In this document: piece after piece, positions 17,000-44,705 of the stretch
Layout: every line of letters begins with the position of its first letter
How positions within the stretch are numbered: position 1 is the first letter of the stretch
Assembly (NCBI GenBank): GCA_050084515.1
Contig: CM114271.1
Span: 21,576,001-21,640,000, forward strand
Source: Blasia pusilla
Lineage: Eukaryota
DNA: 64,000 nt
Direction of reading: 5' to 3'
The notes under the pieces: model-generated
Database searches by the model: none
Told to the model about the DNA's origin: nothing
What the model saw: the letters and a program-made list of their open reading frames with translations, nothing else
Translations under genes and position numbers: made by a program

Positions 17000-17352
17000 A
17001 GGTGGTTGTCGTGTAATATGTGCTCATAGACATGTTTGGAGCAGAGTATGAGAGTATTAGATGTCTTGGGGGGATCAACACGACGGGTTGTTGTAGTATG
17101 GCAGTGTTGCGGGGATGACGGCACGGATAGTGCTAGATATGTATAGGATAGGAGATCATGTTGGGGACACATATGTGTGTGTTGTCTGGAGTTAGGGGGA
17201 CCCAACTGCAAGCTAGGGGGCAGTTGTGGGGTCATGGTGTATGTGCTTGAATATGTTTCATTTATGTGTGGATCTACCCGTATGTCGGTGAAGATCGGTG
17301 TTGTGTGGTATGTAGATGTGACGAGCGATGTGTATGCGCACGACAAATTTCT
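17000..17352 (+). mobile_element. Eroded 3'-end fragment of a relative of the DNMT-Gypsy element (end of coding region, PPT-like tract, B repeat)
   Basis: 17185-17350 aligns by eye with 36488-36670: tctggagttagggg...ctagggggc...tgtgtggatc..cccg...gaagatcggtgttgtgtgg..tgtagatgtgacgagcgatg...tgtatgcgcacgacaa-tttc. Confidence 0.8.
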
Positions 17353-20559: not shown

Positions 20560-23500
20560 CCAATTTGCTATGCGTCGTGATTGGTAGCCGCTCAACGATG
20601 ATCGAGTACCAATTGTTGCGTCGTGCTACACCGCTAGTAGCCACACCGCTAAATCGAGGGTCATTACGGTGTCCTTTCGGGACTTGGAGAGGCAAGGGGA
20701 TATGCATGAGAGTAGCTCTAGAGGATTTACTCAGAGTGGCGCGAGGTTTTGAGGGTCTCAACCTGAAGGACCGCCTCGACCTCCTTCTAGATGGTCCTCA
20801 GAAAAGGAGAGGGCGTAGAGGAGTTTATTTGTGCATCATCGCACACAATGGGTGGTTCTATCGCCAGGGCGTAAGAAATGAACGACCAAGATAGAGGAAC
20901 GCGAACGTTTTGGGAGTTGTGGATATTATAGAGTTGCACTACTTCATCATGAAGTTTAGGTAGATGGCTAGGAACTCTAGAGAGCTCAACTTGTTCACCG
21001 CATGGAACGGAATATTCCAACACTTGGAGGATAACCATGAGTTTTCCAAGTGATACGTACCCAAGATTGAGGCCTCGAGACTCTACTATGACGCACATTA
21101 CGTGTCATGGACTGAACCATTTCTAGATTAGGAGGAGCTAGGAGAGGCTACTTCCTCTGCCACTAGAGAGGTTTCGGGAGGGGTAAGTCAGACTGGGGAA
21201 ATTGCATCGTCTAGTCGGGTTCGTCCTAGGTTCAATCGCGTTATTCAGTTCTTTGCGGAGTTGCAGAGGAACTACCAAGGCTATGGACCGATAAGTTACG
21301 GAGTATCCACGACTTCCATAGGCGCACAAGGGAAAGTTTATGGGAGACATTTACTCGTTTGGGACGTTTGATTAGTGTCACTTAGGGGGTGATAGAGGCC
21401 TAGGTTGTTCCGACATGGTATGGGATGCTGGAGCAGACTTGTGGAGACGGGTGAGGGATGCGATACTTACGATGCGCACCTCAGCTATGTTAAGAGATGT
21501 GTATGAGATGGCGGAGTGTATTTGAGCGCAACCTGGTTGAGGAGAGTGTAGCAACCATGAGTCATGTGCGCGAGCAATCACGATTGCTTACACCACTAGT
21601 GAAGCAATGTGAATTTTGAGAGAGGAAAGTGGCACCATGAGTTTAGGGAGGTTATTGTTAGTATGTGCCATGGAGACCTACGCCATCATATGCGGCACAT
21701 CAACACCCGCTAGAAGTTATTTATTGGGCATGTGGTGGAGCCCATCGCCAACAAGATTGCAGTTGTCAAGGTAGTGGAAGCGTGCCTCAACCTGGAGGAG
21801 GAGATGGACCCGCACCAGGAGTCTACGAGTGTGACCATTATCAATGGTATGGTCATACATGCACCAAGTGTTTCAGCTTATATCGTGAGTTACGTCCGGA
21901 CTAAGGCTCGGACAGAGAGGGCACCAAAGCGAGTTGGTGGTCTGGGTGGACATAGAGGTTGTGTGCTAAGTGGTCTCATTGGGGGACGAATAGTTGGATT
22001 TTTCCGTGGGGTGATGAATATGCCTGTGGAGGAAGTATAGGTCTACCACCTAGATGAGTCAAGGGAGATTGTGAGCGCAAGGTTAGGATGGATGCTAAGA
22101 TAGAGTTTCTGCAATGGCTGATTTTCGCTCTGGCATTGAGGTTACTCGATGCCGAATGAGTGGCATTAACATTATATGGAATAGCTAGAGACATGGAGGA
22201 TCTTGGTTAGATCAGATGTGTGGGGCTACAAAGATGGAGGCAATCGTTATCGTTACACGTGGAGCAACCGTAGAGTTCTTTCCATAGAGAAGGGAGGCCA
22301 TGAAATAGACCAGGGTTCCTCAATCTTTTATGTTATGTCAGGCGATGAGGACCCCATTGATAGATTTTGATCACAGTTCCCAGAGAGTGGATGTTGTTGG
22401 TGTGCAAGCACGGAAGGCGAGGGAGAAGCAAGTGGGACGAATCCTATTCTTGATGCTGAAGGGGAGCACGTCTTCAATACATTGTTTGGAGCGACCACTG
22501 CTATGTACCCTGCCCCATGGTTTTAAACTTCCTATGTTACAAAGTTGGGAGGATGCACGCCGAGTTTTATTGGCTCGCCCCTATGCTAAGTGAGTGCAGA
22601 GATGGTATCCTTGCCTCATGTTTAGAGATGCTTAAGAGGAGGTGGTAGACTTGCCCTTGGAGCCTATGCTGGGGCCATCCATCTCAGATTCATGGCAAGT
22701 TGTGGTTGCTAGGATGGCGCCGATTCCGTCTAGACGTATGATAGAGCATGCCATGGTTTCTCCATGGGTTGTTTTGTTGGATAATCGGGGAGAAGTCTTC
22801 TATTTGGTGAGTCCAAGAGGTAGAGAGTTTTGTCTACAACGCATCTTGTTGGATTTGAGAGGGCAATCCTTGATGTTGGGAAAGGCGGCGTTTACGCGAG
22901 TGGGCCTGACGAGGATCGATGTGGAGCGTTGCCCATTCAGGATGCACACATCCTTGGGTGGAGCTTGAATGAACGTAGTTATCACCCAACATGAGATCAT
23001 GGTGGGGTTCAACCATAATATCCGTTAGATGAGTCCGTGGTGCGGGCCAAGGGAATAATAACCAATATTGAGTCCTATGACGTCTTGGTTGGAGGAGTAG
23101 TGTTGTACACATTAGGATTTCTTGTAGATGATAGGAAGGAGTCAATGTCCTATAGACCAGGATGGCAGTTAGGTGATGGGCGACTTAGCTAGTTCCTTGT
23201 TTGATTCACGGGTGGAGTGATCCAGAAATGATGAGGAGAGATGGCGATACTTGCAACATTAAGTAGTGCCATCATTTGGCATAATGATTTGATTGAGGAG
23301 CATGTCCATGCAGGAGACACGTCCATGCCTAAGACTTCTATGGAGAGGAGTGTTATGATGGTTGTATCATTCCATGGAGGAGAGCATTCTGGGGCTCAAG
23401 TGAGGAGCTTCGATGCTTGGTTGATGAGCACATGCGGATGTCATGGAGCGAGACGTTTGCACTAGAGCGTGACGGGTTAGAAGAACCCCAGGTAGCCGAG

Positions 23501-23950
23501 AACGATGGCACCCTTCGACACCCTGTTGATTGTGTGGTGCATTCGAGAGGAGGATGTTCAAGTGTTGGATCCCTTTGGAGGGATCAACACTGGATTGGTT
23601 GTTGTTTTGCATGAGTGCATATGTAGCAGTATTTGTATGTTGAGCTTGATGAGATTGCGAGGTACATCTCACTTTGATATATGGCGTAGTTACGCCTTCA
23701 TTTTCCTGACTTTTTGTTTGCGTTGGTCGTATAGGGGTTCTAAAGTTCCTTACTAAGGTACATTTCTTTGTTGGGGCCATAGGACTTGGAGTGGGTAGGG
23801 ACCATTGATTTGGTCATTGTTGGTTGGCCATGTGAGGGCCACTCGAGTGTTGGACGAGGAAGCGGTTTAGTTGATGCTCTGTCTAGATTATTTTGGGAGA
23901 TGATGAGGATCTTGCGACACTTGCAAGAACATCAGTCTCATTCTTCACCT
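20560..23950 (+). mobile_element. Degenerate, 3'-truncated second copy of the DNMT-carrying Gypsy family (gag, protease, N-terminal half of C5-MTase)
   Basis: Fragments collinear with the 27-37 kb element: gag (cagttctttgcggagttgcagaggaactaccaagg, like EFFRKLRKSYQG, ~21245; WYG...RRVRDA ~21415), Zn-knuckle remnant ~21830, protease VVLLDNRGEVFYLVSP...QRILLDL (22642-22968), MTase motif I VQVLDPFGGINTG (~23555) and motif IV DLVIVGWPCEGHS...LFWEM (23786-23940). Confidence 0.88.
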
Positions 23951-26050
23951 TGGGCTAGAGGATTAGACAAAATTTTTCAAGGGCCGTAGGTAAGAAATTA
24001 GGCGTCAATGTCCGTCATAATTTAGTATGCGAACATAACGACCTTAGTCTAAAAAGGTAAAAGTGATCCCTAAGGCCTTTCTCTCCTTTTTATTAATTAA
24101 CCTATTGAATCACCCCTTCCTCTTATATCAAATATCCATTAGATTGAGTCTCTCATCTCATCTCATCTCATCTCATCTCATCTCTTCTTCATAGGTCACG
24201 CAATTACTTTTCTTATATGTTTGTATATATCTTCATCTGTCTTATGTGTATCAAACATCCCATGCTATAGTTCTTTTTATCTTATCTTCACTTCATCATG
24301 CATGTTTTATCCTTACTATTATGTGAGGCCTTATCCTCTCATATTTTAGCTTTATTCTAAACAATATATTTTTATCTTTATTGATTACTTTAACTTAATC
24401 TCTACTGAGTCTTATCTTGTTATGACCCTTACATATATGCCTCATTTTGTATCTTGGTCGAGCAGGCTATCCAGCACATCAACTTGATTCGTGTGGCCCT
24501 TCTTACTTTTGATTTGATTCGTGTGACTCTTCCTATCGTAGATTGAAAATGCTGCATCATGAGAGAAGTTATTAGATTCGTGTGATTATATAGGTGGGTT
24601 ATGAGATTCATGTGACATTAGTAGGTTTGTTAAAGCTTATACTCACGCCTATACAAACTGAAATGTTATTGGTTCGTGTATACGAACTTTGTCAAACTCT
24701 TACATTATTGCTCCACTTCTCGCAGAGATTCATATTTCCAAAATCTTCAAGAGGGCTCGCCATATCCCATTGCCCAAGAATGGGAAAAATATATTTCCCT
24801 CTCCTCTCCTATTAGTGTGGGTTGTCGTACTAGTGTGGTTGTCGATAACTTTGTGTCCTAGTTGCGACATTGAGTTAACTTTTCCTTTTTACATCGATTC
24901 CTCATAAAAGAAGGGCCACACACTGGTTACAATACTTCCCATATTTAAGAAGTAACATCCTTGTTACGAGTGTTCACAAAATTTTGAATCATGAAAAACA
25001 TATTGACAAAGTGCTTTGAAGGCTTGCAAGTAGCTTCAAACTATTGATATCCCTTCTTTTAGACCAAATATCAAGTAACTTGATGAGGACCATATTTATT
25101 CATTCATCTCAAATTCTTCTTGATCATTTAATAATTCCCAAAGTGGTGGTTTGATTGGATATGGAGTGAAGATTGATGGTCTAAGAATATCATATCTTAA
25201 GAATAATACGTGGAAGACATTATAAATTTTCATATATAAAGGAAGTTTTAACTTGTGCACCACTTGTCCAATGTGCTTTAAGATAAGAAAATAATTGATA
25301 AAATGTGCATTCATCTTATGAACATCCATTACAAGTTAGTGATAGATAACCATAATTTATCTCCTATAGAGAACTCCTCGTAACGACCATGGATCTGTAT
25401 CGAAACCTATTTACTTCACTCAATTTCAACTATTTGAGCTTTTTCCTTTTCTTGAACTAGTCCCTTTCAAATATGTTGTGTAGAGTTCTCCGTTGTACTA
25501 ATATCTTAAGTAGCATTATCAAGGAGATCTTGTTTGGAAAAACTTATCACTATATGTGGATACTCTCCATAAATCAAAAGGATAATATTGCTTACACTAT
25601 GTGGATACTCTCCATACATCAAAAGAATAATATTGTTTTAGTGCAAGCTATGTGAGAGTTTCCATAGGAAAACTCAATAATGACAATAATCAATCCCACT
25701 TCTCGAGAATGAAAGCTTTGAACATGTTCTCAATCATGCGGATTTGACCATCTAATTATGAGAGATATGTAGTTGATATTGTCAATTGTCTTTTGACAAA
25801 ACCAAACAAAGTGCACCACAATAAGTTTATGAAAGCCTGATCTAACATCCCTATCTTGGATAATCCATGTTACGTAATGAAATTCACTAGAGACAACATC
25901 TTATATGCCTTTTATGAATGTATGACTTAACTATGCACCCAAATCAAGAATTCTAGACCTTCATTGAAAGAACAAACCACATCCATGAGAACCAATGGCA
26001 TAAATATTTGGAATCAAAATGTGAAGATGCTATTGGGTGCCATGTAACGG
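23950..26050 (-). mobile_element. Degraded chromovirus (Ty3/Gypsy) 3' end: integrase C-terminus, chromodomain, PPT and probable LTR
   Basis: ORF 25096-25329(-) HIGQVVHKLKLP..KIYNVFHV...PPL...DQEEFEMNE resembles the GPY/F-to-chromodomain junction. It is followed by YLV-x-KGY...EAT(W)xP-like sequence at ~25020-25075, then a minus-strand purine tract plus TGTAAC at ~24926-24940. The LTR extent is uncertain. Confidence 0.6.
24148..24184. repeat. (TCTCA)n pentanucleotide repeat
   Basis: About 7 tandem TCTCA units. Confidence 0.9.
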
Positions 26051-27324
26051 CTGCATGCATGGAAGGGGTCCCATAACCTTCTAAACTTCACATGGACCAT
26101 AAATATAATTCACTTTTCTTGCCCTATTGTATTATGTCTCTAAAACATAAAAAAAGTTCCGCATATAAAGTCTCCCCGAAATTTCTTTTTCTTCTCCCCA
26201 TTTCAAAATTAGGTTGATGTCTTTCCTTCACCCAAATTGAAAATACAACCCTTTAAAAAAAATTGGACCCTTCTTTTATTACATAACGATCTCTCTTTCT
26301 TTTGAAACTATTTTAATACAAATTTCACCATCTCATAAATTATGAAAAACATACCACTAGATGAATTTTGAAGAGGAAAAGGTGTTCCCTACTTGAGGTG
26401 CAACTCATCCACATTATAGAATAATTTTTGAGAAAAATTAAGTGAAACATAGTGAAACGTACCAACTAACCCAGTTTGTATATGAAAAGGAGAGACATAT
26501 GAGCATCGATGTACTGAGAGAAGCAAAAATTTCTCTTAGTTGATGCCTACGAAGTACGAAGACTTTCCAAATTTGCGCCAATGAATCTATACTCTTATTG
26601 AAATATGGGGGTTACTATGTCTGGAAAGAAGAAGAAAAGTACCGTCTATAAGAAGTGAAGTCTTATTTTTTAAAAAAATGCCAGTGAGAGTTACTTCTTG
26701 GATCGAGATCCTCTCTATTTTTGCTTCTAAAGTCCTCTTTATTTTTGCCTCTAAAGTAATATAACTTATTCTTGAATGAGACAAGAAAGGCTAAAGGAAC
26801 TTTCGAATGTCCCTATTATTGTGATGAAGATCTGATTGTGTTTTATTCGCAGGGACACATGTCAATTAGGTAATTTAAGACAACCCTTTTTAAGTGACCA
26901 AATTTAGTATCATATGTGTTTCGTACCGGGCTCCGGGACGGCCTTAAATCAACAACGCTTTCAAATGCGGAGGGGGTTATCAGAGGAAGTGAAGGAGAAG
27001 CACGACGATTGAAGGTGCAACGCCAAATTGAAGGAGCGTTAGATTGTATGTGGTAAAAATCTTCACCAAAGCTTTGATTTTATTGTTCGAATGGCTCCAA
27101 TTTTTCTGGAATTTACGTCAGGGCCAGATCACTATGATTGTGGAATTTTTGTAAGAAGATGACTTGCAATCATGGTACCATTACTAAGGCGACTGTCTGT
27201 GCTCCTGACTTCTGGCAGTTCCTTTCGAAACCAAGCTTGGGTTGCCATTTCATCGGTTGATGATTCCACTCGCATAGAGTTGGTTCTCCAACATTTTCAC
27301 CTCACGCACACACTTTTATAACCT

Positions 27325-27807
27325 TGTCACATCTGAGTAGCCGATAGGCCGAGATCTATCGTGGATAGGGCGTAGGAGCCAGCGGACTATCTTGAGTGTA
27401 ACTTTGTCCCACGGTGTCGGATGAGGTTGAGGATAGGTCCATTGTGTCAGGAACGTCGTTCTTGACAACTTTCATATTGAGGTTTTTTACAGCCGGGTGA
27501 CTTGTTGACCAGGTCACCCGCCCCTCGTAACCTGTGTGCGCAGGTTACCAAGGGAAGGGCTATTTTTAGGGGAAGAGCCTTTTGGCTCCTCCCAACCCTA
27601 TATAAGAGAGGAAGATGGCTTTCCTAAGCCATCTTTCTCATGTTGGACCGTTGGAGCACCTCCCTTGTATGTGTGTGAGCTAGGACTAGGGTGCTAGCGT
27701 CCGGATTCCTTGATAGCACAAGGTGGACGAGGCTCGATATGCCAATGTAGATTGAGGAGTGGAGTTTTAGGCTGGGTGTGCAATTTTTATTACTCTTTAT
27801 TTTTACA
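27325..27807 (+). repeat. 5' terminal repeat A1 (LTR-like, TGTCAC...TTTTACA; contains TATA box)
   Basis: 27325-27804 is a direct repeat of 36666-37138. TATATAA at 27599-27605. Confidence 0.92.
27599..27643 (+). promoter_or_regulatory. LTR TATA box and predicted transcript 5' end (self-primer sequence GCCATCTTTCTCATGT)
   Basis: TATATAA at 27599. The sequence starting 29 nt downstream (27628-27643) is the exact reverse complement of 27805-27820. Confidence 0.7.
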
Positions 27808-27820
27808 TGAGAAAGATGGC
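27805..27820 (+). promoter_or_regulatory. Putative self-priming primer-binding site (ACA/TGAGAAAGATGGC)
   Basis: Directly follows repeat A1, lacks the TGG of tRNA PBSs, and is 16/16 complementary to 27628-27643. Confidence 0.72.
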
Positions 27821-28277
27821 AGGGGGATGGTGGGAATTCGTTGTTTGCAGGTAGGCAAGCGAGTTGCCTTGGTCGGGAGCCCCTGGAGATGTGTGTGTGA
27901 CATTTTGTGTGTCATTTTTCTGTTCGGAAGGCCGTGGGCGGAAGCACTGTCCGTTTTTCTCAGATTTTGCCGGTGCGGATTGATGGGGGACAGCAGTAGG
28001 GTGTAGCGCAGGTTGTGTCGACAGGAGTAACGTCGTCTTATAGCGCGTGGAATGTCGGGAGTACCCAGGGAGAAGAGTTAGAACTTGCAGCCGCCAGGGG
28101 GCTGTCAAGTAAAGGGCGGCTAGGTTAGGTCGCCAAGGCTAGGCGACGGACGCTTGACGGGCGCGACGGCAGCAGCAACAACAGCGAGGGCGCGGACGGC
28201 GAAAGAATGCGCGGAAAGGCGGACGGGAGAGAATGGATGGGCGAGAGGTGCCCCCTCACTCCCGCATTTACTCCTTA

Positions 28278-28581
28278 CCCCCCCTCGGCGCATTTACAAG
28301 GGCTGCATAGGGCCGCGGGTCCTTCCCCCCCCCCTCCCCTCCCTCTCCCGCACTTGGGGAGGGCCGCATGGGCCGCGGGCCCTCCCCTCCCTCCGTTGTT
28401 CTCCCGCAGGTTGGGGGGCCAAGGGATGACCCCCCCCCCCGGGCGCATTTACAAGGGCCGCATAGGGCCGCGTGTCCTTCCCCTCCCCCTCCCCTACCTT
28501 TCCCGCACTTGGGGAGGGCCGCATAGGGCCGCGGGCCGTCCCCTCCCTCCGTTGTTCTCCCGCAGGTTGGGGGGCCAAGGG
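28278..28581 (+). repeat. GC-rich ~155 bp tandem duplication in the retrotransposon leader
   Basis: ggcgcatttacaagggc...gggggccaaggg occurs at ~28287-28425 and ~28442-28581. Confidence 0.9.
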
Positions 28582-29405
28582 CCGACCCACATAGTAAGGG
28601 GAGCTATGTGGTTGAGCGGGCTTGTACGCAAAATTTGCAAAGTGAGATTTTGCACGGAGATTATTTTTGGAAGACTGAACTGACTGTCGGCAAGGTGGGT
28701 GAGTTACCACAGACAGTTTGCGGGGGAGAGTTGACGATGGAGTATCTGTTGACGGGAGGATCGACGTGTTGGTCGAGGAGAGTGTTGTGTTGCGGAGATT
28801 GTCATCTCATGACGAGGAGTGCATGTTGACGGTGCAGCAGGTTGGAGGGCGTGATCAGGTTACCCATTCCAGTCCCTTTTCCCGCACTTGTCGTGTGTGA
28901 TTGAGAGTGCTGGGTATCGGGTAGTAGCTGGTGCTAGATGGGTGCAGTGATGGTGACGAGTGTAGATTCTTTTCATGTGTAGCATGTTGGTGGATATACG
29001 GCGGTTTCCGAGTAGGGGTCGCGTGTATGACCCGAGAGAGTGTCGCTAGGTTAGGTAAGCAATTGGGAGGCTCATGGTGAGCCCTAGTGTTGAGCGTGCG
29101 TGAGGCCGGGTATGTCATCACGGGATTGACGTTAGCATAGGTGAGCTAGTGAGGCGTGTGGGAGACTCTCGGTGAGTCTGAGTGCTTGAGCGGGTGAGAC
29201 AGGGTTTGTCATCACGGCGTTCTTCCAGGGTTCGGAAGAACGGGGTAGTGCGAGCAATGGTAGTGGTGTGTCACTGAGTGGAGTGAGATACCGAGGAGTT
29301 ACCAGTGAGGAGCTCCCTCGACATCCATCCGTGACTGGATCGTCATCACTGGACACTGAGTCTGGTGACGAGATCACCGATAGAGACAGTAGTACTTGGT
29401 AGGAG

Positions 29406-30600
29406 ATGGACGACATGGGCCATCGGGGCATGCGTCGTTTCTCGGGTGCAGTGGGCACCATCGACTTAGATGATTTCATCCAAGAGCTCGATACATGGTG
29501 CGACTTCCAGGAGATACGGACCCCGACACGGGTCAACCCTTTCATGGCATGGAAGGGGTTGTTCCAGCACTTGGAGGGTCCTCCGAGGGATGACTACATG
29601 GAGTTTCAATCACTATATTCAATAGAGATTGATGCATGGAGGATGTATTGGGCTCCAGGGTATGTGTCCACTAGTGGTCGCAAGGCATATGATGGGATTG
29701 TGAGAGGAGAGAGACCCACACCATCAACCCGGAGACTAGATGGAGAGGAGGGGAGTGAGACAGGCGATGTGGCAGAGACCTCTGGTGGTAGAGGGCCACC
29801 CAGCTTCAGCCCCACAGTGGAGTTCTTCCGAAAGTTGAGGAAGAGCTACCAGGGCGTACGCATCGACAAGCTAAAGAGTCTACATGATTTTCAGTGACGA
29901 TCGGGTGAGAGTCTGAGAGAGACATTCACATGCATGAGGAGGCTGATCATTGCTACGTTTGGAGTGACTGAGGTGCAATCAGTCCAGTATTGGTACGGGG
30001 TTCTCGACCGAGAACTACGGAGGAGAGTCCGAGATGCGGTGCTGATTCACACCGCGAAGCCCACATTGAAGGTGGTCTTTGAGTTGTCTGAGCGTATTGA
30101 GCTCAACATGAGTGAGGAGCAGGTAGTGGCCGCTGGATTTTCTCGAGAGTCGACGGGTCCACGAGCGACGGTGACCCCACAGGTGCCACAACGAGCACCA
30201 GTACCACGGGAGCGGGCCAGTGTGCCTAGAGAGCAGGGCGGGTACCGTGAGCCTATGAGGCAACGACCCGCACCTACATATGTTGCCCAACAGGGACCAA
30301 TGTGGTCTTGTTGGACGTGTGGAGGGGCCCATAGGCAGAGAGAGGCGCCACAAAGATGGGAGAGGACCACCAGCGCCTCCGATTGCTCAGGAGCCACAGA
30401 GGATGGCCCCACCACAGCACCAGTGTGACCATTGCCACAGATATGGTCACACTAGGGATAGATGTTTTGACCTTCGCCGAGGGGCACGTCCAAAGGTAGG
30501 CCGAGGGCCTGGAAGCGGTTGTCCTAGAGGAGGTCGGGGAGTTCTTCCTGGACGTGGTGGTAGAGGACCACCACCAGCCAGAGGAGATGGAGCAGAGCTC
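29406..30600 (+). pseudogene. gag: Gag with two CCHC-type zinc knuckles (disrupted)
   Basis: RRFSG...DLDDFIQELDTW N-terminus; in-frame TGA at 29895; CWTCGGAHRQRE at ~30309, then a frameshift to CDHCHRYGHTRDRC at ~30424-30465. Confidence 0.8.
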
Positions 30601-31279
30601 TAGAGCCGGCACTTCTCTCACGATCGATCGGTTGGAGGAGAGGATTGCTGCCGCCATGACGATGATGCGGCTTAGGAAGGCACGGAGTGCGGCGGCTAGT
30701 GTGACTCGGCTTCTACCTCTTACCCCGACCCAGTGAGGATCTCGCCAATATAGGATTCATGTGTAGTGCGGCCCAGGTTGAGGCGGTGCGCAGTGGTGAC
30801 TGGGAGTCTTTGGAGAGGCACCGAGCCATCGAGAGGTGGAGTTGAGATTGACCCACCGAGGGGACCGATGGGCGGCAGCCAGGGTTCCACGATGCGTTCA
30901 CATTGTCGGAGGCACTACACACACCATCGATGGTGCCTCGACGACCAACGGTGCCTACACTTCAGGCACCTACGTCGACGTCATGACGACTTGGAGTGAC
31001 AACTCCTATGCCGGCTCGAGTGGAGTCTGTGTCGACCATAGTGTTGGAGGTGGCCACCAGAGTGAGTCAGACTCCGCTATTTTCCGCCATAGAGTTGGCG
31101 ACGTTGGGAGTTGGACCAGCTGAGATGTTCTGGTTGGCCGCCACGTTGTGTGAGCGTGGAGAGATGATTGCTTCTTGTTCAGAGGTAGTTGAGGAGGTGG
31201 TGGACTTGCCCTCGAGCGGTCTTTGGCCGGGACGTTCCCCACGAGTCATGGCATCGGCGACGGCACGCGGTTGGTAGAT

Positions 31280-31760
31280 ATGCCAACTCGACCGGCCATA
31301 GAGCGAGCAGTGGTGACACCTGGAGTAGTGTTACTGGATAATCGAGCTGGAGTATTTCGCTTGGTTAGTCCGACGGGGATGGTATACCACCCGCAACGCG
31401 TCCTTCTTGATTTGGGAGCGCAACCCTTGATGTTAGGGAAGGCGGCGTGTTTAGCGTTGGGGTTACGGAAGGCCGACATTGAGCCTTGTCCCTTCCAGAT
31501 ATAGACCTCGATTGGGGGCATATCACCCACTCAGTATATGACCCGACGGGAGATTGTTGTCCGAGTCCAGCCAGAGCATGCGACGGATAGTGCTATGGTG
31601 TGCACACGTGCGATTACGACACCAGCTGAGTCGTACGATGTGTTGGTGGGGAGTACAGTGTTATATCCCCTAGGATTCATCCTTGACTTGTGGGAGGAGA
31701 CCGTTGCTTATCGGCCAGGATGGCGGTCACGTGACGGCCGGATGAGTCAGTTACCTGTGC
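31280..31760 (+). pseudogene. Retropepsin-like aspartic protease domain of Pol
   Basis: RVLLDLGAQPLMLG active-site-like motif and downstream YDVLVGSTVL; in-frame TAG at 31502. Confidence 0.75.
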
Positions 31761-32121
31761 AGTTTGCGGGACGAGGTGGTCGATCACGAGGCGAGTCTGT
31801 GACCATATTGGCGGCTTTCACAGGTAGTGTTAGCTAGCCAGGAGAGTTGTCGGAGGGGAACGCACATGCGAAGGATGTCCCAGTAGCGGATAGTCCCGCG
31901 GAGAGACATGCCATGGCGGGTGTCTCTTCCTATGTTGGCGAGGCCTCTTCACCATTGTGGGGTACGACTTGGGAGCTACAGAGGAGTGCCAACGACCTTG
32001 TGAGGCAAGCGTGGAGTCATGTTTTTATCCCAGAGCAGCGAGAGTCACGTGGTGATCGGGCTCTTGGAGTGGAGACGATGACCCCACTAGATACCACACC
32101 TGTTGTGTGGCAGTGCCCAGA

Positions 32122-33075
32122 GGAGGGTGTTAGGGTATTAGATCTCTTCGGAGGGATTAGCACCGGATTGGCTGCCATATTGCAGGCGGGCATACTGGTG
32201 CATCAGTTTCTTTATGTGGAGAGAGATGAGACCGCGCGGCGAGTATCATTACGTCACGTGGCAAGATTGGTCCAGAGGTATCCTGAGTTGTTGCCGGTAT
32301 CTGCAGTACGGGGATATCAGCATACGCTACCCACCGATATCTCTTTGGTGGGGGTGCAGGATCTGGATGGAGTTGGCACCATTCATTTGGTGATTGCTGG
32401 ATGGCCATGTCAGGGTCATTCATCAGCTGGCCGAGGATTTGGATTGCAGGATCCGAGGTCAGGGATGTTTTGGGAGATGTTGCGAGTAGTACGACACTTG
32501 CAGGAGAGTCAGATATGTTCTCCAGCGTACATTTTGGAGAACGTGCCATTGTTGGGAGACACTCGTGCACGTGTGATGACGAGTGTACATCAGGTGAGGT
32601 CCTGGTTGGGACCTACTGTGTTGTTAGATGCAGCGAGAGTTGGGTCACGTGCCCACCGTCCACGACTGTGGTGGACGAACCTGATACCATCAGAGGTACT
32701 GAGTCGAGCATACAGTGGAGTCCAGAGAGCACCACATCTCATAGTGGATGCTATTTTGGGCTCAGGGCGTCGATCTCAAGTGGTGACACGGGATAATAGA
32801 CCACCGTTGGCCATGGCCAATAGGGTGGGGGAGTTGAGGGCAGCCTTACCTACGTTGGTGAGCTTCCCAACATCCCATGCCTTTCGTCAGGGAGGGCCAA
32901 GCATGATTTGGGATGAGGTGACCGGAGTATTGGAGGAGCCTATAGCAGATGAGCGCGAGCGCGCCATGGGGTTCACTACCGGTACTACGACGGTGCCAGG
33001 GATGACTGAGGCATCACGGAGACAGGTGTTGGGTCAGACGATGGACCTCAACTGTCTCACATGGATAGTCAGCCT
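32122..33075 (+). CDS. C5 cytosine DNA methyltransferase domain, DNMT3-like with non-permuted motif order, embedded in Pol
   Basis: Uninterrupted within ORF 31847-33340. Motif I VLDLFGGISTG, II YVERD, IV AGWPCQGHS (catalytic PC at 32405-32410), VI ILENV (ENV at 32537-32545), VIII AHRPRLWWTN, IX ERERAMGF, X RRQVLGQTM. Same reading frame as the protease (ORFs 31223, 31538) and RT (ORF 33383). Confidence 0.93.
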
Positions 33076-33382
33076 AGGTATGGCTGAGCAGAGACGGATG
33101 CGAGTGTCATCCATGCCGTCACGTCCACGAGTTGGACCATTGCCTCACGAGTGGTCAATACAGGCATTGGTCGGGGGCGAGATGAGGAGAGATAGGCACC
33201 CATGGACTTCCTGGGACGTCGTTCAAGCAGAGAGTGCGAAGGCGGCTAGAGTAGCACATGTTCATTTTTCAGATGTGGAGCATGGTGTAGGAGGTCAGAG
33301 TGGAGTGGGTGTTGCGGAGGTGGCTAGCGTTGCTACATAGCAACCAAAGCTGGAGGTTGCGTCCTCTCCGAGTGAGGTCACG

Positions 33383-34830
33383 ATGGAGACTTGGGAGCCT
33401 GTGATAGGTCTCAAGTTGATAGGAGGAGAGCCACGGCAAGTTCATAGGTTTCTGAGAGGGCATGTCAGTTGTTTTGCCTTCAGTATGAGAGACTTGGGTA
33501 CGCTGAAGGGTCTTGGGATACGGATTGAGTTGGCTAGTGATACGCTGATCTTTCGTCGATCCTACAGGTATTCTGATATGGAGCGAGCCTTGATTCAGAT
33601 CAGGAGTCAGGACTTGTTGGAGGCAGGACTTGTGGAGTTATCACATGGGGAGTATGCATCTGCCACAGTCATGCCGGCAAAGAAGGATATGTATGGCAAT
33701 TGGACGGATAGGCGGATGTGTGGAGATTACCGTCCTATCAACCGACAGACGAGGTCAGATCGGTACGCCATGCCTACTCCTGAGGAGATCTTTGATGCGG
33801 TAGGCCATGCAAAGATCTTGAAGACTTTAGATCTCCGTCTTGGCTATCATCACTTCCTATCGAGTTGGAGGACAGGAGAAGACAACATTCTGGGGGATAG
33901 ATCGGTTTGGGAGAGATTGCTTGTATCAGTGGCGGTTCTTACCATTTGGGTTGAAGAACGCGCCTGCAGAGTTTCAAAGAGTGATGGATAGAATTCTGGC
34001 TGGCTTGGATTTTGTACGATGTTACATAGATGATATTATTATCTTCAGTTCCATGGTTGAGGAGCATGAGCGACACTTGGAGGAGGTGTTTCGGCGATTG
34101 CAGTTACATGGACTGAAGTTACATCCAGGCAAGTGCAGATTCTTTCAAGAGCAGATTGAGTACTTGGGACACACCATATACCCGAGTGGGTTAGGCGTTC
34201 AGCAGACGAAGGTAGAGGCTATTGCGCAGATTCCACGCCCTACAGATGTAAGTCGAGTCCGAGCATTTCTTGGACTAGCGAACTTCTATCGACGGTATGT
34301 CAAGGGTTTTAGTGCGATCGCAAAGCCTTTGACCTTGTTGACGAGACTTGATCAGGTTTGGTTGTGGGGAGATGATCAGGAGCGAGCATTTCAGGAGCTC
34401 AGGACAGGTTGCGTCCTCACCCATTTCTGAGAGACCGGTTAGGGTCGCCCATTCGATTACATACAGTTGGAGCATGTTGGGTCTAGGAGCAGTGCTTACT
34501 CAGAGGGATGACGAGGAGAGGGAGTTCGTTGTGGCTTACGCGAGCCGATCAAACAACATTGTAGAGGCGAAGTACAGCTCCTATGAGGGAGAGTGCTTGG
34601 CTGCAGTGTGGGCCGTGGCACATTTCAGGTGCTATTTGTTCGGCAACCCTTTCACACTTATCACTGATCATCAGCCGTTGAGGTGGTTGATGGAGTCCGA
34701 CAAGCTTACGGGAAAGCTTGCCAGGTGGGCTCTATTACTACAGGAGTATGAGTTCGAGGTGGTTCATAGGCCAGGTGGGCTGAACCAGGATGCGGATGGG
34801 TTGGGTCGTAACCCATGTCCGAGTCAGAGA
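33383..34830 (+). pseudogene. pol: Reverse transcriptase and RNase H (two frameshifts)
   Basis: RRMCGDYRPIN...YAMP, LDLRLGYH, LPFGLKNAPAEFQR, YIDD (34023-34034), YLGH, FLGLANFYRRYV; RNase H LGAVLTQ...YASR...YSSYEGECLAAVWAV...TDHQPL...LARWAL...ADGL. Confidence 0.95.
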
Positions 34831-35202
34831 GACGTCACGGGAGCTCGATGGCACGGAGAGAGTGATGAGGAGATGGTGCCCGGTTGGCATGCATCTGCCT
34901 ATCTTTGTTGGTTGACTATGGTAGGTCAGCCACATGTGATGACTCCAGTGGTGGGGTTGGATGATGAGTCTTTGGATCCGGAGGTCACTGAGGAGGCGAC
35001 AGGTGGTCGTGATATCCATGACGACGTGGAGGTTGTGGAGTTCTTGCGCAGTTGCGTCATAGCGAGCACGGTGAGTGCTAGGGAGCGGGATCGGATCCTA
35101 TAGAGGGCCAGGAGGTTCAGGTGGGAGGGGACTCATATTTTACGGGTATGGGGAGATGGTAGGATACGAGTGGTACCTCATCCTTCCCAGTGAGCACGTG
35201 TA

Positions 35203-36451
35203 GTGCGACATGCCCATAAGGAGTTTGGACATTTTGGAGTAAAGCGTACTAACAACTTACTCCAGGTTCAGTATTGGTGGCGCGGCATGCATACTGGGGT
35301 ACATCAGTTTGTGGCCAGATGTATGCTATGTGACAGAGTGCGAGCATCCTTCAATGTTCCCACTCCGCAGTTGCATCCTTTTCCGATTATGGGTTTAGGT
35401 TATCGGTGGAGTTTAGACTTTGCGGGACCTTTGCCATTGACAGGGCTTCATCATAGGTACGTGTTGGTCATGGTGGAGCATTTCTCCAAGTGGATAGAGT
35501 TGGTGGCACTACCAGACAAGGCGAGCGAGGGAACAGCTTATGCGTTTCTAGATTGTGTGCTTAGTCACTTTGGTACACCGGCGGAGGTGTTGACTGACCA
35601 GGTACCGAGTTCGGGGAGAGTTTCAGGCCTTGTGTGATCAGGCGCTGATAGATCACCACACCACGTCTAGAGATTATCCTGAGGCATATGGGTTGGCGGA
35701 GAGAGTGGTACAGACGGTGAAGAGAGGATTGCGCAAGTATGGCTTGCAGCGGGGACAGTTGAGGGAGTGGGACCTACAGTTGCCATGGTTGGCTATAGGT
35801 TATCGCTTTAGTCGGCACGCATCCTTGGCGTCATTTTCACCGTACTTTTTGCTCTTTGGGAGAGAGCCAGATTTACCCGCAGCGATTCGACGTGACATGG
35901 CGGAGGTGTTAGATCTTGATGATCCAGATGTGTGGGTGCAAGCATGTTCTCAGAGGGCAGAAGTTTTTCGTATAGTTATGCCTATGGCCTTTGAAAACTT
36001 AGCTATTGCCCACCATAGAGATACATTGAGGTACGCGACCATTCGTGGAGGAGGTTATCGTCCAGGGATTAGGAGGTCTCATCTTGGAGATAACGTTTAT
36101 TTACAGCAGGCGGCACCCACGACGCTAGATGTCACTGTAGGGCGCACGACCCTACGTGTGCGCGAGGTATTACCGACCGGAGTCCTCATGTTGGAGGGAC
36201 GGGATGGTTTGGTTTGGAAGGATCATGTGCGCAATTGTGCGCCATGTCATCTTCCGAATGTAGATGGGACGGTGGATCCGAGCTTGGCAGTGGTACCTGC
36301 AGGCTTGAGGTGTATGTTGTGCGGATCTGCGAGGGGTGCAGCCACCATGTTGGTATGTGATGGTTGTTCTCGAGGGTGGCATATGTCATGTCTAACCCTC
36401 CCTCTTGATGTGGTTCCCACGGGACGATGGATGTGTCTGAGATGTATATAG
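35203..36451 (+). pseudogene. DDE integrase (H2C2 zinc-binding and rve core) with C-terminal PHD finger
   Basis: HKEFGHFG...CMLC; WSLDFAGPLP; TDQ (frameshift ~35600-35630); GLAER. C-terminal CMLC...CDGC...WHMSC...WMCLRC is a C4HC3 PHD at ~36311-36446. Confidence 0.92.
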
Positions 36452-36525
36452 GGTAGTAGGTCATGTCAGAGAGATGTGATATTTTCTATCTGGAGTTAGG
36501 GGATCCAAGCGCCCACTAGGGGGCG

Positions 36526-36663
36526 GTTGTGTGATCTCCATGTATATGTATGAGTTTATTTTTGTACATGTGTGGATCGACCCGTGTGTGGGGAAGATTG
36601 GTGTTGTGTGGTGTAGATGTGACGAGCGATGTATGTTGTGTAGCGGTATGTATGCGCACGACA
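36526..36663 (+). repeat. Internal repeat B1 (138 bp), preceded by PPT-like TAGGGGGCGG
   Basis: Direct repeat of 37139-37276 with 4 mismatches counted by eye. Confidence 0.93.
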
Positions 36664-36665
36664 AC

Positions 36666-37138
36666 TTTCACATCTGAGTAGCCGATAGGCCGAGATCTAT
36701 CGTGGATAGGGCGTAGGAGCCAGCGGACTATCTTGAGTGTAACTTTGTCCCACGGTGTCGGATGAGGTTGAGGATAGGTCCATTGTGGGGAATGTCGTTC
36801 GACAACTTTCATGTTGAGGTCTTTTACAGTGGGTGACTTGTTGACCAGTCACCCCCCTCAGAATCTTTGTCTTGTGAGTTACCAAAGGAAGGGCTATTTC
36901 TAGGGGAAGAGCCTTTTGGCTCTTCCCAACCCTATATAAGAGAGGAAGATGGCTTTCCTAAGCCATCTTTCTCATGTTGGGCCGTTGGAGCACCTCCCTT
37001 GTATGTGTGTGAGCTAGGACTAGGGTGCTAGCGTCCGGATTCCTTGATAGCACAGGGTGGACGAGGCTTGATATGCCGATGTAGATTGAGGAGTGGAGTT
37101 TTAGGCCGGGTGTGCCATTTTTACTACTCTTTATTTTT
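36666..37138 (+). repeat. Repeat A2 (copy of 5' repeat A1)
   Basis: Matches 27325-27804 but starts TTTCAC instead of TGTCAC and lacks the terminal ACA. Confidence 0.93.
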
Positions 37139-37276
37139 GTTGTGTGATCTCCATGTATATGTATGAGTTGATTTTTGTACATGTGTGGATCGACCCGTGT
37201 GTGGGGAAGATCGGTGTTGTGTGTTGTAGATGTGACGAGCGATGTATGTTGTGTAGCGATATGTATGCGCACGACA
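37139..37276 (+). repeat. Terminal repeat B2
   Basis: Copy of B1; ends ...GCACGACA followed by ACCT. Confidence 0.93.
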
Positions 37277-38214
37277 ACCTGTCCTGGATACTGAATGGAA
37301 AAATCGAGTTTCCAGGTCACATCATGTCCTAATTGCAGTCACACCAAGATGAGGGAAGGCCTGCGAACAATAGATCACTTGCAACAGAAGACACATTGAA
37401 ACCACATTAATGAATCGGTGTTCAAGATCCTTCTTCCTGTTAAGAGAACTGAAATTGGGAGGGTGATTCAAACTTGCAAAGGGGACGGAGAAGGGAAGAT
37501 CTCACTCGACCGTCTCCATCATCCGGGCGATGCACCTTACGCCTTCCCACGGTGCACTTATCTGGGCCGATAATGAGTGTCAAGGCGACGATGAGACACC
37601 ACCACTCTTTCATGTTTCTGAATAGTGTCGTTGTTTTTTCATGACAGTTTGAGTTTACACGTCTTTCTATGTCTTATGGAGTTGAGAGAGATTTCCTGGG
37701 TCCATCACATCAAGATGTCCCGTGATCGCAGCTCTGAGATTGCATGCAGTCGTAGAGTGATTGGTACGCTGGTGCAATGAGGATGGTGGAGGTGGAGATC
37801 AGTACGATGAATTCATAGAGATAGATCACTTCAGATGGAGAAAGAATCATCGTTCTCTAGAGAAGACGATAACCAGATGATTGTGCAGAACCTATTCAAG
37901 GGATCCAACGGAAGGACTCCTAGAAAAACGGCGGAAGGTGCGCCACGCGCTCTTTAGCACATCGTTTGCCATGAACTTCCTACACGACTTCCTCAAGTAT
38001 CCCCACTTGTCCAAACCTGACTGGATGGAGGCCAGGGAAAACGAGGAGGAGGAGAAGCAAGAGAACGTGCAAGGTGTCGAGTCCTAGGAAAAATACAAGG
38101 AAAAGTTACGGTGCAAGAACTTCAAGGAGAGTAGATTTATAGTTTTGCATATAGCTGCTCTACTCCATAAGGAGGAGATTGTACGCAGACTTCTACATCA
38201 AGCTGATCTAGAAG

Positions 38215-38692
38215 CGCGTAGATGCACCGGGAGACTATCTGAGTCAGGAAAAAAGCCCCCTTATTTAAGCTTGACTCCGTTCGTAGGTGAGGAGTGAGAC
38301 AGACAGAGAGAAAAGAAAAAAGCCCGCGTAGACAGCAGCCTGCCCGTGCTCATACGCTCAATACGTAGGTGCGACCAGAGGGTAGAAAAAAAAGAGCGCC
38401 CATGCTCGTCCGCCCGATAGGTTGGTGCGACCAGAGGGTAGGGGACAGAAGTTGTTCACAGTTGGGTCCGCCCGATAGGTAGGTGCGGCTACAGGGGTAG
38501 GGGAGAGGGTAAGTGAGGGGTTCTAAGTCGGGTCGAGCCTATTGATGAGCGCGGTCCCTTTCAGCCCTTTTTGGCTGAAGTCTTGACCCCTATTCCTTTT
38601 GATGATGCCAGAAATCGTTTTGATATACGATTTTATTTTGTTTCTATTTTGTTTATTATATTTGATTTGGAAGTCACCTTTTTATTTCTTTG
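38215..38692 (+). pseudogene. nad3: Nuclear insertion of mitochondrial DNA (NUMT): 3' part of a group II intron plus a nad3 exon fragment
   Basis: 38594-38692 encodes [31 protein letters not shown], a conserved Nad3 segment. Upstream sequence ends ...cttcagccc-tttt-ggctgaag...gacccctAT, resembling group II domain VI and 3' splice site. Left boundary is approximate. Confidence 0.85.
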
Positions 38693-38699
38693 GAATAAG

Positions 38700-39700
38700 A
38701 TTCCAACCGGACTCAAACCCAGGTCAATGTCCGGGGAGAACCGGGGTTACATGTTGAGCTGGCCGGTAGAAATTGAGAATTTCCGATTCAGTACGTCACT
38801 TACCGGCCAAAAACCGAGGGTTCAGGGAGGGTGTCCTTTGTATTCGTATCTGTTTAGCCGGCTGAAATGACGAAAACTTCAAAAATTTCAGCTTGGTTTT
38901 GTAGAGACCGGAAATGTACCGGTTGTCACGAAAAAACTCCCCGGACCCTGACCCTGACCCTGACCCAGGTCTCTACGCCCGAGTCCCATGACCCACCCGG
39001 CTAGCCCAACAGCCGGATGCATGCACTACGTCTTCGATTTATGTGTTTTGTAATAAGACATTTCCTTGATTCCCTTTATTATTAGAATAATTTCGGATTT
39101 TATTATTATTTTAGTTTTTATGTAAGACTTTGCAATATTATTTTTTAACTTGGTTCATTTTTATTTATATTATATTTTTTTGCTATTGAAAAACCAATAA
39201 TCATTTTTGCATTGCAGCCAATCATTACGGAGTAAGCGTAATTGGTGTCATATCAATTCTCTCATCGACATGCAAGGGGCCTTTAATTACGGAAAAAACT
39301 AAAGAGAGTGGGAGTCTTGAATATATGGCAGCGAGAGATGAAGAGCAAACATTTTCTTTGTCTTGCTTGCAAAGAAAACGAAAACTATTTCATGTGGAGC
39401 CTATGTTGTCCTCTCCTCCAAATGTTTTCAATGAGGTTGAGGAGTTTAGGGAAGTTGGAAGTGGCCAAGAAGTTGTGGGTACTCTCAATAGTGATGAGAA
39501 ATACTTCTTGGAATTATACATTGGTCTTGAAGAACATGACTATGTTGAAAACTTTTCCACTTCCCTTTATGATTATGAGGGATGATATGTCGGTGATATG
39601 TTTGATAGGGAATATAGGCATATTGATTATAGGGATATGGATAATAGTTGTGATGATAGTGAGATAGGAGATTTGATGATTGATATTCTTTCTCCGGATT
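38700..39700 (+). mobile_element. Possible degraded hAT DNA-transposon fragment
   Basis: CCGG- and (GACCCT)n-rich, subterminal-like segment at 38700-39020. Sequence near 39228-39330 reads like the hAT dimerisation motif (x-E/K-RNW...F.H...R.RL), followed by an acidic tail. Confidence 0.35.
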
Positions 39701-43794: not shown

Positions 43795-44705
43795 ACCCTC
43801 CCTAGACCGGCTTCCTTTCTCCGTCCCGTCTTCCCCCCCAACACACACACACACACACTCTCTCCTCTCTCTTGCGTTTCACTTCGTGCCCCCTTCCATG
43901 TCCCCGACGAAACCACGAAGGTAATAACCAATTGCCTTCCCCACGAACGGATCGTAAAATGCGCTAACGCGCCAGTACGCTTCCACGATGTTTGGCGAAA
44001 CTCGAACCTTTTGAACGCCTCTCTACTGTTATTAGCTTCTGCCTTCGTCTCTTCTGCGAATCTGCGCTGGCTTTCGTGCTTTCTTCCGACAACTCCTCCA
44101 GACTCCGGATTCCATCGCGCGCCCCTGTTCATTCATTGGAGCTCTGGACCGACCGCGCTACGGAACATTCTGTCCGCACTCACTCCTCCTCCTCAACCCG
44201 AAACAACCCGTGAGGCTCGCAGTTCCGCTTGCTCGACATCATCCATCCACGATTCCACGCGCCACTGCTCCTCTCACTGACGATCGTCAGAGTCGTAAGT
44301 GATCGAATGACCGGTACCAAATTTGCAGAGAGTGCATGATTTAGTCTCTGCACGCAAATTTGAAATGTTCAAGAGGAATGTGGAGCACGATACGAATGTA
44401 CGATGGGAGAGGCGCGTGTCTTGTTACTACTGAACGGATGTACGTATGACACATATTTCGTTCGAGTTATAATGCTAATTTGTCTACATATCAAGAAGTG
44501 CTTCCGTGAGAGTAAGACTAGATTTGATCATATGTGACTTGTACTTTCATCATAAAAAAAAGTTCGCATGCTTTCTAAAGTGTCCCAATTTGAATTCTCT
44601 TCGAAGTACGCATGTCATTAATTTGTACCGGTCTGAATTGTGTGTACAATGGAGAGGACAATGGACGATTAAAGAGAAAAAAATTTGACGAAGAGGAAAA
44701 TTTTG

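Follow-up and report, generated by a model that had tools for sequence, protein, structure and literature searches.

A decayed Ty3/Gypsy-type retrotransposon of the liverwort Blasia pusilla with an integral DNMT3-like methyltransferase domain and an apparent leaky stop codon behind it

The stretch of DNA analysed here, called the window in the following, comprises 64,000 nucleotides of the Blasia pusilla assembly GCA_050084515.1 (contig CM114271.1, positions 21,576,001 to 21,640,000 of the forward strand). It harbours a Ty3/Gypsy-type retrotransposon of 9.95 kb (27325-37276, + strand), which is bordered on both sides by the 4-bp target duplication ACCT and encodes, between its protease and its reverse transcriptase (RT), a DNMT3-like C5 cytosine methyltransferase (Table 1). 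The Gypsy affiliation had been proposed in an original prediction made from the sequence alone, and it was borne out: RT, RNase H and the zinc finger and core of the integrase are recognised by Pfam (RVT_1, RT_RNaseH, Integrase_H2C2, rve), Gag and protease by tblastn. The zinc knuckle of Gag is readable in an open reading frame (ORF) at 30259-30603, and the two halves of the protease have no Pfam match. A tyrosine recombinase is absent by Pfam, the rve core and the H2C2 zinc finger being present; Pfam likewise found neither PWWP nor ADD regulatory domains in the element, and no chromodomain, the C-terminus of the integrase bearing a PHD finger instead. No primer-binding site of the tRNA type (TGG...) is seen after the first terminal repeat, and Rfam and tRNA scans of the 64-kb window gave no matches. 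Related proteins and DNA loci are referred to below by our own P and L numbers.

The methyltransferase (DNMT) occupies frame 2 of the plus strand, which according to the ORF listing and the translation is open over 500 codons (31838-33337) with a TAG at either end. This frame contains no stop and no frame change, its first ATG is at 31913, and the folded core extends from about 32099 to 33136. In the translation the motifs follow each other in linear order from I to X, the catalytic Cys, ENV and RxR are all present, and every motif string quoted in the original prediction is found. The HMMER comparison suggested there gave a significant, partial match to PF00145 (E 4.5e-10, 39.9 bits against a cut-off of 22, limited to residues 164-247). 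Among PDB sequences DNMT3A/B/C match best (E about 1e-7), followed by DRM2 (3e-3) and M.HhaI (7e-3); a profile of 28 family sequences sharpens this ranking to DNMT3A 7e-24, DRM 4e-12 and HhaI 7e-8, and DNMT1 has no match at E <= 1e-3 in this profile search of the PDB. An AlphaFold model built with the alignment of these 28 members has a mean predicted local distance difference test score (pLDDT) of 80.9, most blocks of 10 residues exceeding 90 between about residues 85 and 430. Its Foldseek matches in the PDB, among those listed (to rank 50), are all DNMT3A/B/C (E about 1e-17, target template modelling score up to 0.85), and the predicted fold superposes on the whole DNMT3A catalytic domain. 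Of the 11 columns that are invariant in the alignment of the family, the Blasia copy has lost none; among them are the catalytic Cys188, Glu231 and Arg271, and the near-invariant Asn232 (of ENV) and Arg273 (of RxR) are retained as well.

An identity with the plant DRM enzymes was considered and rejected: DRM is circularly permuted, with motifs VI-X ahead of I-V, and the Blasia domain runs from I to X. In the PDB sequence search the alignment with DRM2 is restricted to motifs I-IV, that is, to the C-terminal end of the DRM2 chain. The Protein Atlas offered a generic methylase cluster only, mostly of Streptophyta. The domain is thus complete, non-permuted and DNMT3-like rather than DRM-like, as had been predicted, and sequence, profile and fold searches agree on this; the assignment to DNMT3 rests on comparisons with the PDB, the domain tree presented below being composed without host DNMT3 or DRM sequences.

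The retained residues suggest a catalytic function. Alternatively, the domain might have been conserved for something other than DNA methylation, either methylating RNA or serving as a structural or DNA-binding module of the polyprotein. Such a role would agree with the main text of de Mendoza et al. (2018; PMC5890265), in which the Gypsy DNMT of Klebsormidium nitens and a LINE DNMT of Symbiodinium gave no DNA methylation in yeast and RNA methylation was raised by the authors for the LINE case. However, all catalytic and cofactor-binding signatures of DNA C5 methyltransferases are invariant in the 28 aligned members, the modelled fold matches the DNMT3A catalytic domain in its entirety, and the DNMT3 domains of Symbiodinium DIRS elements do methylate CG in yeast (PMC5890265), so that we regard this alternative as improbable.

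The copy in the window is dead, because its coding region has accumulated eight premature in-frame stops and at least six frame changes. The frame that holds the DNMT is crossed by three TAG codons (31502, 31835 and 33338), and further stops are located at 29895, 30843, 30849, 30984, 35101 and 35191, the last being a TGA immediately upstream of the integrase region. It had been predicted that protease, DNMT and RT share one frame and are separated by single TAG codons only. This stands for the protease and, in the RT region, for roughly the 170 initial codons; the RT core and all that follows it (RNase H, integrase, PHD finger) have been moved to other frames by frameshifts, and one of the TAGs falls within the protease. 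The paired repeats have diverged by about 6%, with 29 substitutions and 10 gap columns over the 483 aligned columns of A1 and A2. As a separate observation, the DNMT frame is free of lesions, while the rest of the coding region carries about 14 in about 1750 codons. From our own lesion counts the chance of this is about 0.01-0.03, a figure calculated post hoc; the intact frame could be due to chance, or it could hint that the domain stayed useful after the copy had died.

Table 1. Features of the Blasia element and of a second related element in the window (positions refer to the window)
Feature	Position	Strand	Basis
Left target-site duplication ACCT	27321..27324	+	Direct sequence reading; same 4 bases at 37277-37280
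Terminal repeat A1; element start 27325 by TG end	27323..27804	+	blastn, 93% to 36665-37138
Two tandem ~155-nt units, G+C-rich, in leader between A1 and gag	28278..28588	+	Repeat search; blastn 93%
Gag with CCHC zinc knuckle; TGA at 29895, one frame change	29403..30603	+	tblastn, Marchantia P0002 residues 1-379, 53% identity
Aspartic protease region; TAGs 31502, 31835	31268..31837	+	tblastn, P0030 residues 644-791, E 8e-15, frame 2
DNMT3-like C5 cytosine methyltransferase frame	31838..33337	+	Pfam, PDB search, AlphaFold/Foldseek, alignment
TAG and CAACCA, UAG-CARYYA type I context; proposed ORF1/ORF2 boundary	33338..33346	+	Sequence reading, relatives' alignment
Reverse transcriptase; frame change ~33856-33879	33341..34430	+	Pfam RVT_1 7.4e-25; tblastn frames
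RNase H; TAG 35101 at its end	34408..35103	+	Pfam RT_RNaseH 1.9e-31
DDE integrase (H2C2 zinc finger, rve core); frame change ~35601-35612	35194..36250	+	Integrase_H2C2 1.6e-13, rve 9.5e-10
PHD finger, integrase C-terminus; natural stop 36449	36311..36448	+	Pfam PHD 6e-10
G-rich tract directly before B1, polypurine-tract-like	36514..36525	+	Sequence; relatives' G-runs of 7 (L065) or 8 bases at or near same place
Repeat B1	36526..36665	+	97% identical to 37139-37278
Repeat A2	36665..37138	+	blastn
Repeat B2; element end 37276 by CA end; right ACCT 37277-37280	37139..37278	+	blastn, sequence reading
Second, older related element, heavily degraded, 3'-truncated near 23945-23980	20913..23980	+	tblastn with P0002, P0030, P0037; translation

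The methyltransferase is shared by a large family. Protein relatives occur in Marchantia polymorpha (many, with 52-59% identity and up to 1333 amino acids), Calypogeia fissa (60%), Riccia sorocarpa and four Sphagnum species, and further in Klebsormidium nitens (45% over half of the query), Closterium and many unnamed sources; vascular plants are not represented among the named protein matches. A library of 50%-identity representatives contains 3579 relatives at a threshold of E <= 1e-3, of which 237 reach E <= 1e-30; many are parts of proteins of 1000-3400 amino acids. When the domain was placed in 298 DNMT-bearing proteins and locus ORFs, it was found beside the protease or before RT in 64 and between RNase H and integrase in 106, the remainder being 127 DNMT-only fragments and one odd case. 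On metagenome contigs, 419 of 598 pattern matches encode relatives. The 51 loci of at least 8 kb that were kept read (Gag)-protease-DNMT-RT-RNase H-integrase-PHD in 36 cases and RT-RNase H-DNMT-integrase-PHD in 15. A PHD finger accompanies the DNMT in both domain orders, and in most loci that extend far enough it follows the integrase. The best PDB match of the Blasia finger is PHD2 of DPF3 (2.5e-13), followed by DPF2, PHF12, CHD4, KDM5A/B (PHD1), PHF21A, AIRE and UHRF1; we take these nearest solved relatives to be readers of the unmodified histone H3 tail. The second element of the window has kept gag, protease and the first third of the DNMT, with motif IV still readable among many stops, and shows no similarity to the main copy at the nucleotide level.

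Since the second copy, the 64 proteins and 36 of the 51 loci share the domain, the DNMT is integral to the family, inherited and free of introns, rather than captured by this copy alone. The opposite explanation, an accident of this one copy through nested insertion or through capture of a host DNMT3 fragment, found no supporting point and is rejected by the comparison with the family: a single gap-free tblastn segment spans the protease, the DNMT and the start of RT against both Marchantia P0002 and K. nitens P0037, with neither an intron nor a junction, the placement recurs throughout the proteins and loci just mentioned, and no RNA splice joint falls within the element among the 15 of 47 joints listed. 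We consider such an accident scarcely conceivable. Absence of the domain from other copies, or its capture together with introns, had been named as grounds for giving up the original prediction; the relatives share the domain, and it is free of introns.

A tree of the domain (139 rows, quick LG+G4 search, no outgroup; rows not spanning the core were left out unless named, as were unnamed rows that shared 55% identity or more with a row already kept) follows the domain order. One branch with a Shimodaira-Hasegawa-like approximate likelihood ratio test (SH-aLRT) value of 100 parts all 26 rows of the protease-DNMT-RT order from all 81 rows of the RNase H-DNMT-integrase order. The Blasia domain is a member of an 11-row clade (SH-aLRT 100) together with Calypogeia, Sphagnum and Marchantia, and in this quick tree without outgroup K. 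nitens and Closterium fall into other subclades on the same side of the main split. The phylogeny proposed with the original prediction has therefore been obtained in part: it includes the DNMT of the K. nitens element, on the same side and in a different subclade, and its scope is the element-borne domains, without cellular DNMT3 and DRM and without an outgroup. The sister group with the RNase H-DNMT-integrase order (L034, L039, L042, L045, L049, L053, L054, L061-L063, L066, L068, L069, L071 and L073) comprises many very long intact frames, up to 3609 amino acids in L042, with low DNMT dN/dS (ratio of non-synonymous to synonymous substitution rates).

The stop codon directly behind the DNMT differs from the other stops of the copy. 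UAG-CARYYA is the type I leaky-stop context known from plant viruses (tobamoviruses) and from work on plant eRF1-1 (described in the parts of PMC5382211 and PMC5397192 cited here), and it stands behind just one of the ten listed stops of the copy, the TAG at 33338. L001 and L002, two DNA loci from the clade of the Blasia copy, carry TAG CAGTTA where the alignment places this stop, with a frame that runs on into RT. L002 is otherwise intact: its in-frame ORFs of 1369 amino acids (Gag-protease-DNMT) and 1047 amino acids (RT-RNase H-integrase-PHD) are separated by this one TAG. Proteins that end at the aligned stop are Marchantia P0002, P0004, P0006, P0007 and P0009, Calypogeia P0313 and the unnamed P0003, and two Marchantia gene models (P0005 and P0011) skip it. 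The string TAGCARYYA occurs four times in the window against 3.6 expected by chance; it is not rare as such, so that the evidence lies in its position and its conservation.

Two readings of this codon can be set against each other. On the one hand, the TAG at 33338 may be one more decay mutation in a family that encodes a single Gag-Pol with the DNMT inside Pol, an explanation to which the other TAG and TGA lesions of the copy, the continuous frame at this place in other subclades and the near-chance frequency of the string in the window would all be congenial. Against a random lesion speak the CARYYA context, unique to this stop among the ten listed, a differently spelled CARYYA stop as the sole interruption of the intact L002 and again in L001, and the seven proteins, five from Marchantia, one from Calypogeia and one unnamed, that terminate there; decay of a continuous Gag-Pol frame is accordingly given a small probability. 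On the other hand, motif and conservation make it probable that elements of the bryophyte clade use the TAG behind the DNMT as a programmed leaky stop, with Gag-protease-DNMT as ORF1 and RT-RNase H-integrase-PHD produced by readthrough. A leaky stop at this place would make the DNMT the C-terminal domain of the abundant upstream product. The original prediction of an enzyme inside Pol, packaged as a Pol cleavage product, does not fit an apparently conserved leaky stop behind a DNMT that ends the Gag-protease frame.

Selection on the DNMT domain was estimated with the Nei-Gojobori method on all pairs with at least 60% amino-acid identity among 26 loci, these being the loci, out of 80, with an uninterrupted frame of at least 450 amino acids around the DNMT; most metagenome loci of the protease-DNMT-RT order are degraded. 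Eighteen pairs were listed, of which ten were saturated or identical and gave no ratio, and the other eight represent five independent comparisons. Their dN/dS is 0.14 for L001/L002 (dS 0.25), which belong to the clade nearest to the Blasia copy, 0.30 for L036/L049, 0.14 for L045/L061, 0.04 for L064/L072 and 0.03 for L066/L071. In each pair for which both could be computed, the value of the DNMT is equal to or below that of the rest of the polyprotein. Judged by these ratios the DNMT appears to be under purifying selection in the relatives; the dN/dS comparison suggested by the original prediction has its values (0.03-0.30 in five independent pairs) from metagenome relatives rather than from host copies.

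One DNA run and three RNA runs of the host species, the latter picked by their species label, were mapped to positions 25000-44999 at a likeness of at least 92%. With 131,253 contig records placed, the summed DNA word depth, which is not a copy number, is 5,400-69,000 inside the element and 0.4-26 in the flanking bins, except for 38340-39006 (990). The family is high-copy in the host species. First mates of the RNA reads lie mainly on the minus strand over the element and on the plus strand over the neighbouring minus-strand host gene, and the transcripts are therefore sense to the element. Sense RNA depth is 0.8-3.2 over the two DNMT bins, 10-15 over RT to integrase and about 4-14 over the neighbouring host gene. 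As to splicing, the four RNA joints among the 15 of 47 joints listed all lie in this host gene and none inside the element. The RNA-seq evidence called for by the original prediction hence speaks for sense transcription of the element family, about half of the reads deriving from other copies.

The repeats of the element are not plain long terminal repeats (LTRs). Their layout is A1 ... B1-A2-B2, with TG...CA ends (27325, 37276) and no B ahead of A1; the B segment of 140 nt stands once directly before A2 and once directly after it. The full arrangement recurs in five of 18 related loci examined (L006, L008, L022, L033 and L065), each with a G-run at or just before B1; B1 and B2 alone are present in seven of the 18, and six have nothing comparable. 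Wherever the internal joint of B1 and A2 could be resolved, it reads CA, two nucleotides and TG, with point variants: TA replaces CA in L033, and TA or TT replaces TG in L006, L022 and the Blasia A2. Perfect 4-bp duplications together with TG..CA ends were found in three of six elements inspected, namely the Blasia element, L006 and L033. Relative to the two-LTR arrangement, the order A...B-A-B, found here in a provirus with TG..CA ends and 4-bp duplications, is circularly permuted. A stretch at 17185-17331 is 78-91% similar to the B-repeat region (36489-36632, 37181-37245) and is probably a stray fragment of a related element.

How such an element may use its methyltransferase can be outlined as follows. 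With a leaky stop behind the DNMT, every ribosome would make Gag-protease-DNMT, and RT-RNase H-integrase-PHD would be added by readthrough alone, so that the DNMT would be supplied at the level of Gag and not of Pol. The protease of the element would release the DNMT, which would travel with the particle or the pre-integration complex and methylate de novo the new double-stranded complementary DNA (cDNA) or the fresh insertion, following a hypothesis of de Mendoza et al. (PMC5890265). The PHD finger might steer the integrase to chromatin unmethylated at H3K4, as chromodomains presumably do for chromoviruses. Taken jointly, protease release, travel with the particle, self-methylation of cDNA or insertion and steering by the PHD finger fall, in our estimate, somewhat short of an even chance. 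In the main text of PMC5890265 the idea of self-methylation is backed by the activity of the DIRS enzymes of Symbiodinium in yeast and not by the K. nitens enzyme.

A different target is conceivable as well: the DNMT might act in trans, its substrate being host chromatin or other transposons. It would then be a free enzyme of the nucleus whose de novo methylation changes the silencing landscape of the host. Its position upstream of the proposed leaky stop, by which it would not be tied to the stoichiometry of RT and integrase, is in keeping with this, as are the abundance and transcription of the family and the lesion-free DNMT frame of a dead copy with its internal ATG at 31913. A domain fused to the C-terminus of Gag-protease is, however, expected to be drawn into particles, and the lesion-free state is the post hoc observation discussed above; action in trans thus appears unlikely to us. 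Stated in its widest form, the proposal would be that bryophytes (liverworts and Sphagnum) harbour a living, high-copy and transcribed lineage which makes a DNMT3-type methyltransferase at Gag levels by way of a leaky stop, an unrecognised source of de novo cytosine methylation that acts on its own cDNA and possibly on host chromatin. In this entirety we hold the proposal to be doubtful.

Several observations weigh against our main interpretation of the element. The Blasia copy, with its eight premature stops and at least six frame changes, cannot work. The aligned stop is lacking in P0030, L006 and K. nitens P0037, all from the same side of the tree, and readthrough is proposed from a motif and its conservation. 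The tree is a quick search without outgroup and without host DNMT3 or DRM sequences. Purifying selection was estimated from metagenome relatives and not from host copies, the closest pair being only 48% identical to the Blasia copy. Roughly half of the RNA reads match at no more than 90-95% and therefore come from other copies, and the RNA evidence concerns transcription, not translation. No Gypsy-type DNMT has a demonstrated activity in the literature cited here, the yeast result for K. nitens being negative and, according to the main text of PMC5890265, inconclusive. The reading specificity of the PHD finger is taken from the matched PDB proteins and is thus presumptive. Finally, we could not derive from standard LTR reverse transcription a route that leads from an element with a DDE integrase to an A...B-A-B provirus.

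Should the proposal in its widest form be true, land plants would owe part of their de novo cytosine methylation to a source not recognised so far, enzymes encoded by transposons, and this is testable in Marchantia polymorpha. The purpose of transposon-encoded DNA methyltransferases is a standing question, for which the sole studied Gypsy case, that of K. nitens, gave no activity in the main text of PMC5890265. In liverworts, elements of this kind are both abundant and transcribed, and their many long open copies in M. polymorpha, a transformable species with good methylomes, make the question accessible to experiment. With the apparent leaky stop, the enzyme would be expected to be dosed and packaged like Gag and not like Pol, which bears directly on the choice between action on cDNA and action in trans. 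For genome annotation it is of consequence that counts of "DNMT3-like" genes in bryophytes are inflated by such elements.

The surroundings of the element are those of a liverwort nuclear genome. An exon at 58211-59290 (-), which encodes a GOST/TMEM87-like seven-transmembrane protein, shares 86% identity with Marchantia paleacea, 83% with Riccia sorocarpa, 77% with Calypogeia fissa and at most 70% with vascular plants; the predicted land-plant host is confirmed by this proximity to liverworts, the host probably belonging to the complex thalloid group. The host gene at 41008-44342 (-) has four RNA-supported GT..AG introns (41587-42795). Between the element and this gene, a nad3-like open frame of mitochondrial type (38517-38870, +) breaks off after about 60 conserved residues; its region has a DNA word depth of about 990, and RNA maps there to either strand. 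A nuclear insert of mitochondrial DNA would behave in this way if it attracted reads from the true mitochondrial gene. Because of this frame, the window was also considered as plastid or mitochondrial DNA, an origin that was rejected in view of the spliced nuclear host genes flanking the element.

Among known systems the closest is KnitGypsy-Dnmt3 of K. nitens, for which the main text of de Mendoza et al. (2018; PMC5890265) describes an intron-less DNMT3-like domain in the Pol ORF of a Gypsy element, with a Ka/Ks of less than 0.2 and a repeat structure that the legend of Fig. 4c calls "the same as that of a DIRS retrotransposon". The Blasia element very probably is a dead member of a bryophyte lineage of this known kind, for which the alga Klebsormidium is the sole host described so far. 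Both have the Gypsy domain set, DIRS-like split repeats and, between protease and RT, a DNMT3-like domain that is neither permuted nor interrupted by introns; purifying selection on the DNMT is reported for K. nitens and suggested, on the Blasia side, by metagenome relatives. Moreover, K. nitens P0037 aligns over the whole polyprotein and, in the quick tree without outgroup, stands on the same side as the Blasia domain. In contrast to KnitGypsy-Dnmt3, the Blasia element resides in a land plant, a liverwort, and belongs to a separate bryophyte subclade, its DNMT is followed by an in-frame UAG-CARYYA where P0037 has no stop, and its integrase is followed by a PHD finger, a domain with no mention in the main text of PMC5890265. 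PHD fingers in retrotransposons have been noted (in the cited part of PMC6673714). The K. nitens enzyme did not methylate in yeast, a result which its authors called inconclusive, human DNMT3B having failed too (main text of PMC5890265).

The original prediction overstated the novelty of such an element in a land plant: it belongs to the kind of KnitGypsy-Dnmt3, the wording "streptophytes (Gypsy-DNMT3)" is in use in later papers (in the cited portions of bioRxiv 10.64898/2026.05.21.726589 and PMC12344493), and many ORFs of this sort are present, annotated as hypothetical proteins, in the public genomes of Marchantia, Calypogeia, Riccia and Sphagnum. Our literature search found no description of DNMT-bearing retrotransposons in liverworts, mosses or other land plants, and the supplements of PMC5890265 and PMC12344493 may list them.

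SymbioDIRS-Dnmt3 of Symbiodinium likewise is a retrotransposon with a DNMT3-like domain, and its DNMT3 domains methylate CG de novo in yeast, which in the main text of PMC5890265 is the only shown case of activity and the basis of the idea of cDNA self-methylation. Unlike the Blasia element, it is a DIRS element with a tyrosine recombinase in an unrelated host, and according to the same text the domain was acquired independently. From DIRS and Ngaro elements in general the Blasia element differs by its DDE integrase and the lack of a tyrosine recombinase. With the cellular DNMT3A/B/C it shares the motif order I-X, the catalytic residues and the best matches in sequence, profile and fold, whereas the identity is about 20%, PWWP and ADD are not found by Pfam, and the domain is set in a retrotransposon polyprotein. 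As in chromoviruses, a chromatin-reader module is attached to the C-terminus of the integrase and presumably steers integration; here, however, the reader is a PHD finger in place of a chromodomain, and the element carries a DNA methyltransferase in addition.

The arrangement around the stop codon resembles type I readthrough as in tobamoviruses and with plant eRF1-1, an in-frame UAG-CARYYA standing between an abundant upstream product and a rarer downstream product of replicase type, which for Blasia is a prediction. Unlike in those systems, protease and DNMT are located upstream of the Blasia stop. In gammaretroviruses, Gag and Pol are joined by readthrough of a UAG. New in the Blasia element are its occurrence in a land plant, where Marchantia, Calypogeia, Riccia and Sphagnum provide many relatives, the abundance and transcription of the family, the apparent leaky-stop architecture that would place the DNMT in ORF1, and the company of a PHD finger with the DNMT.

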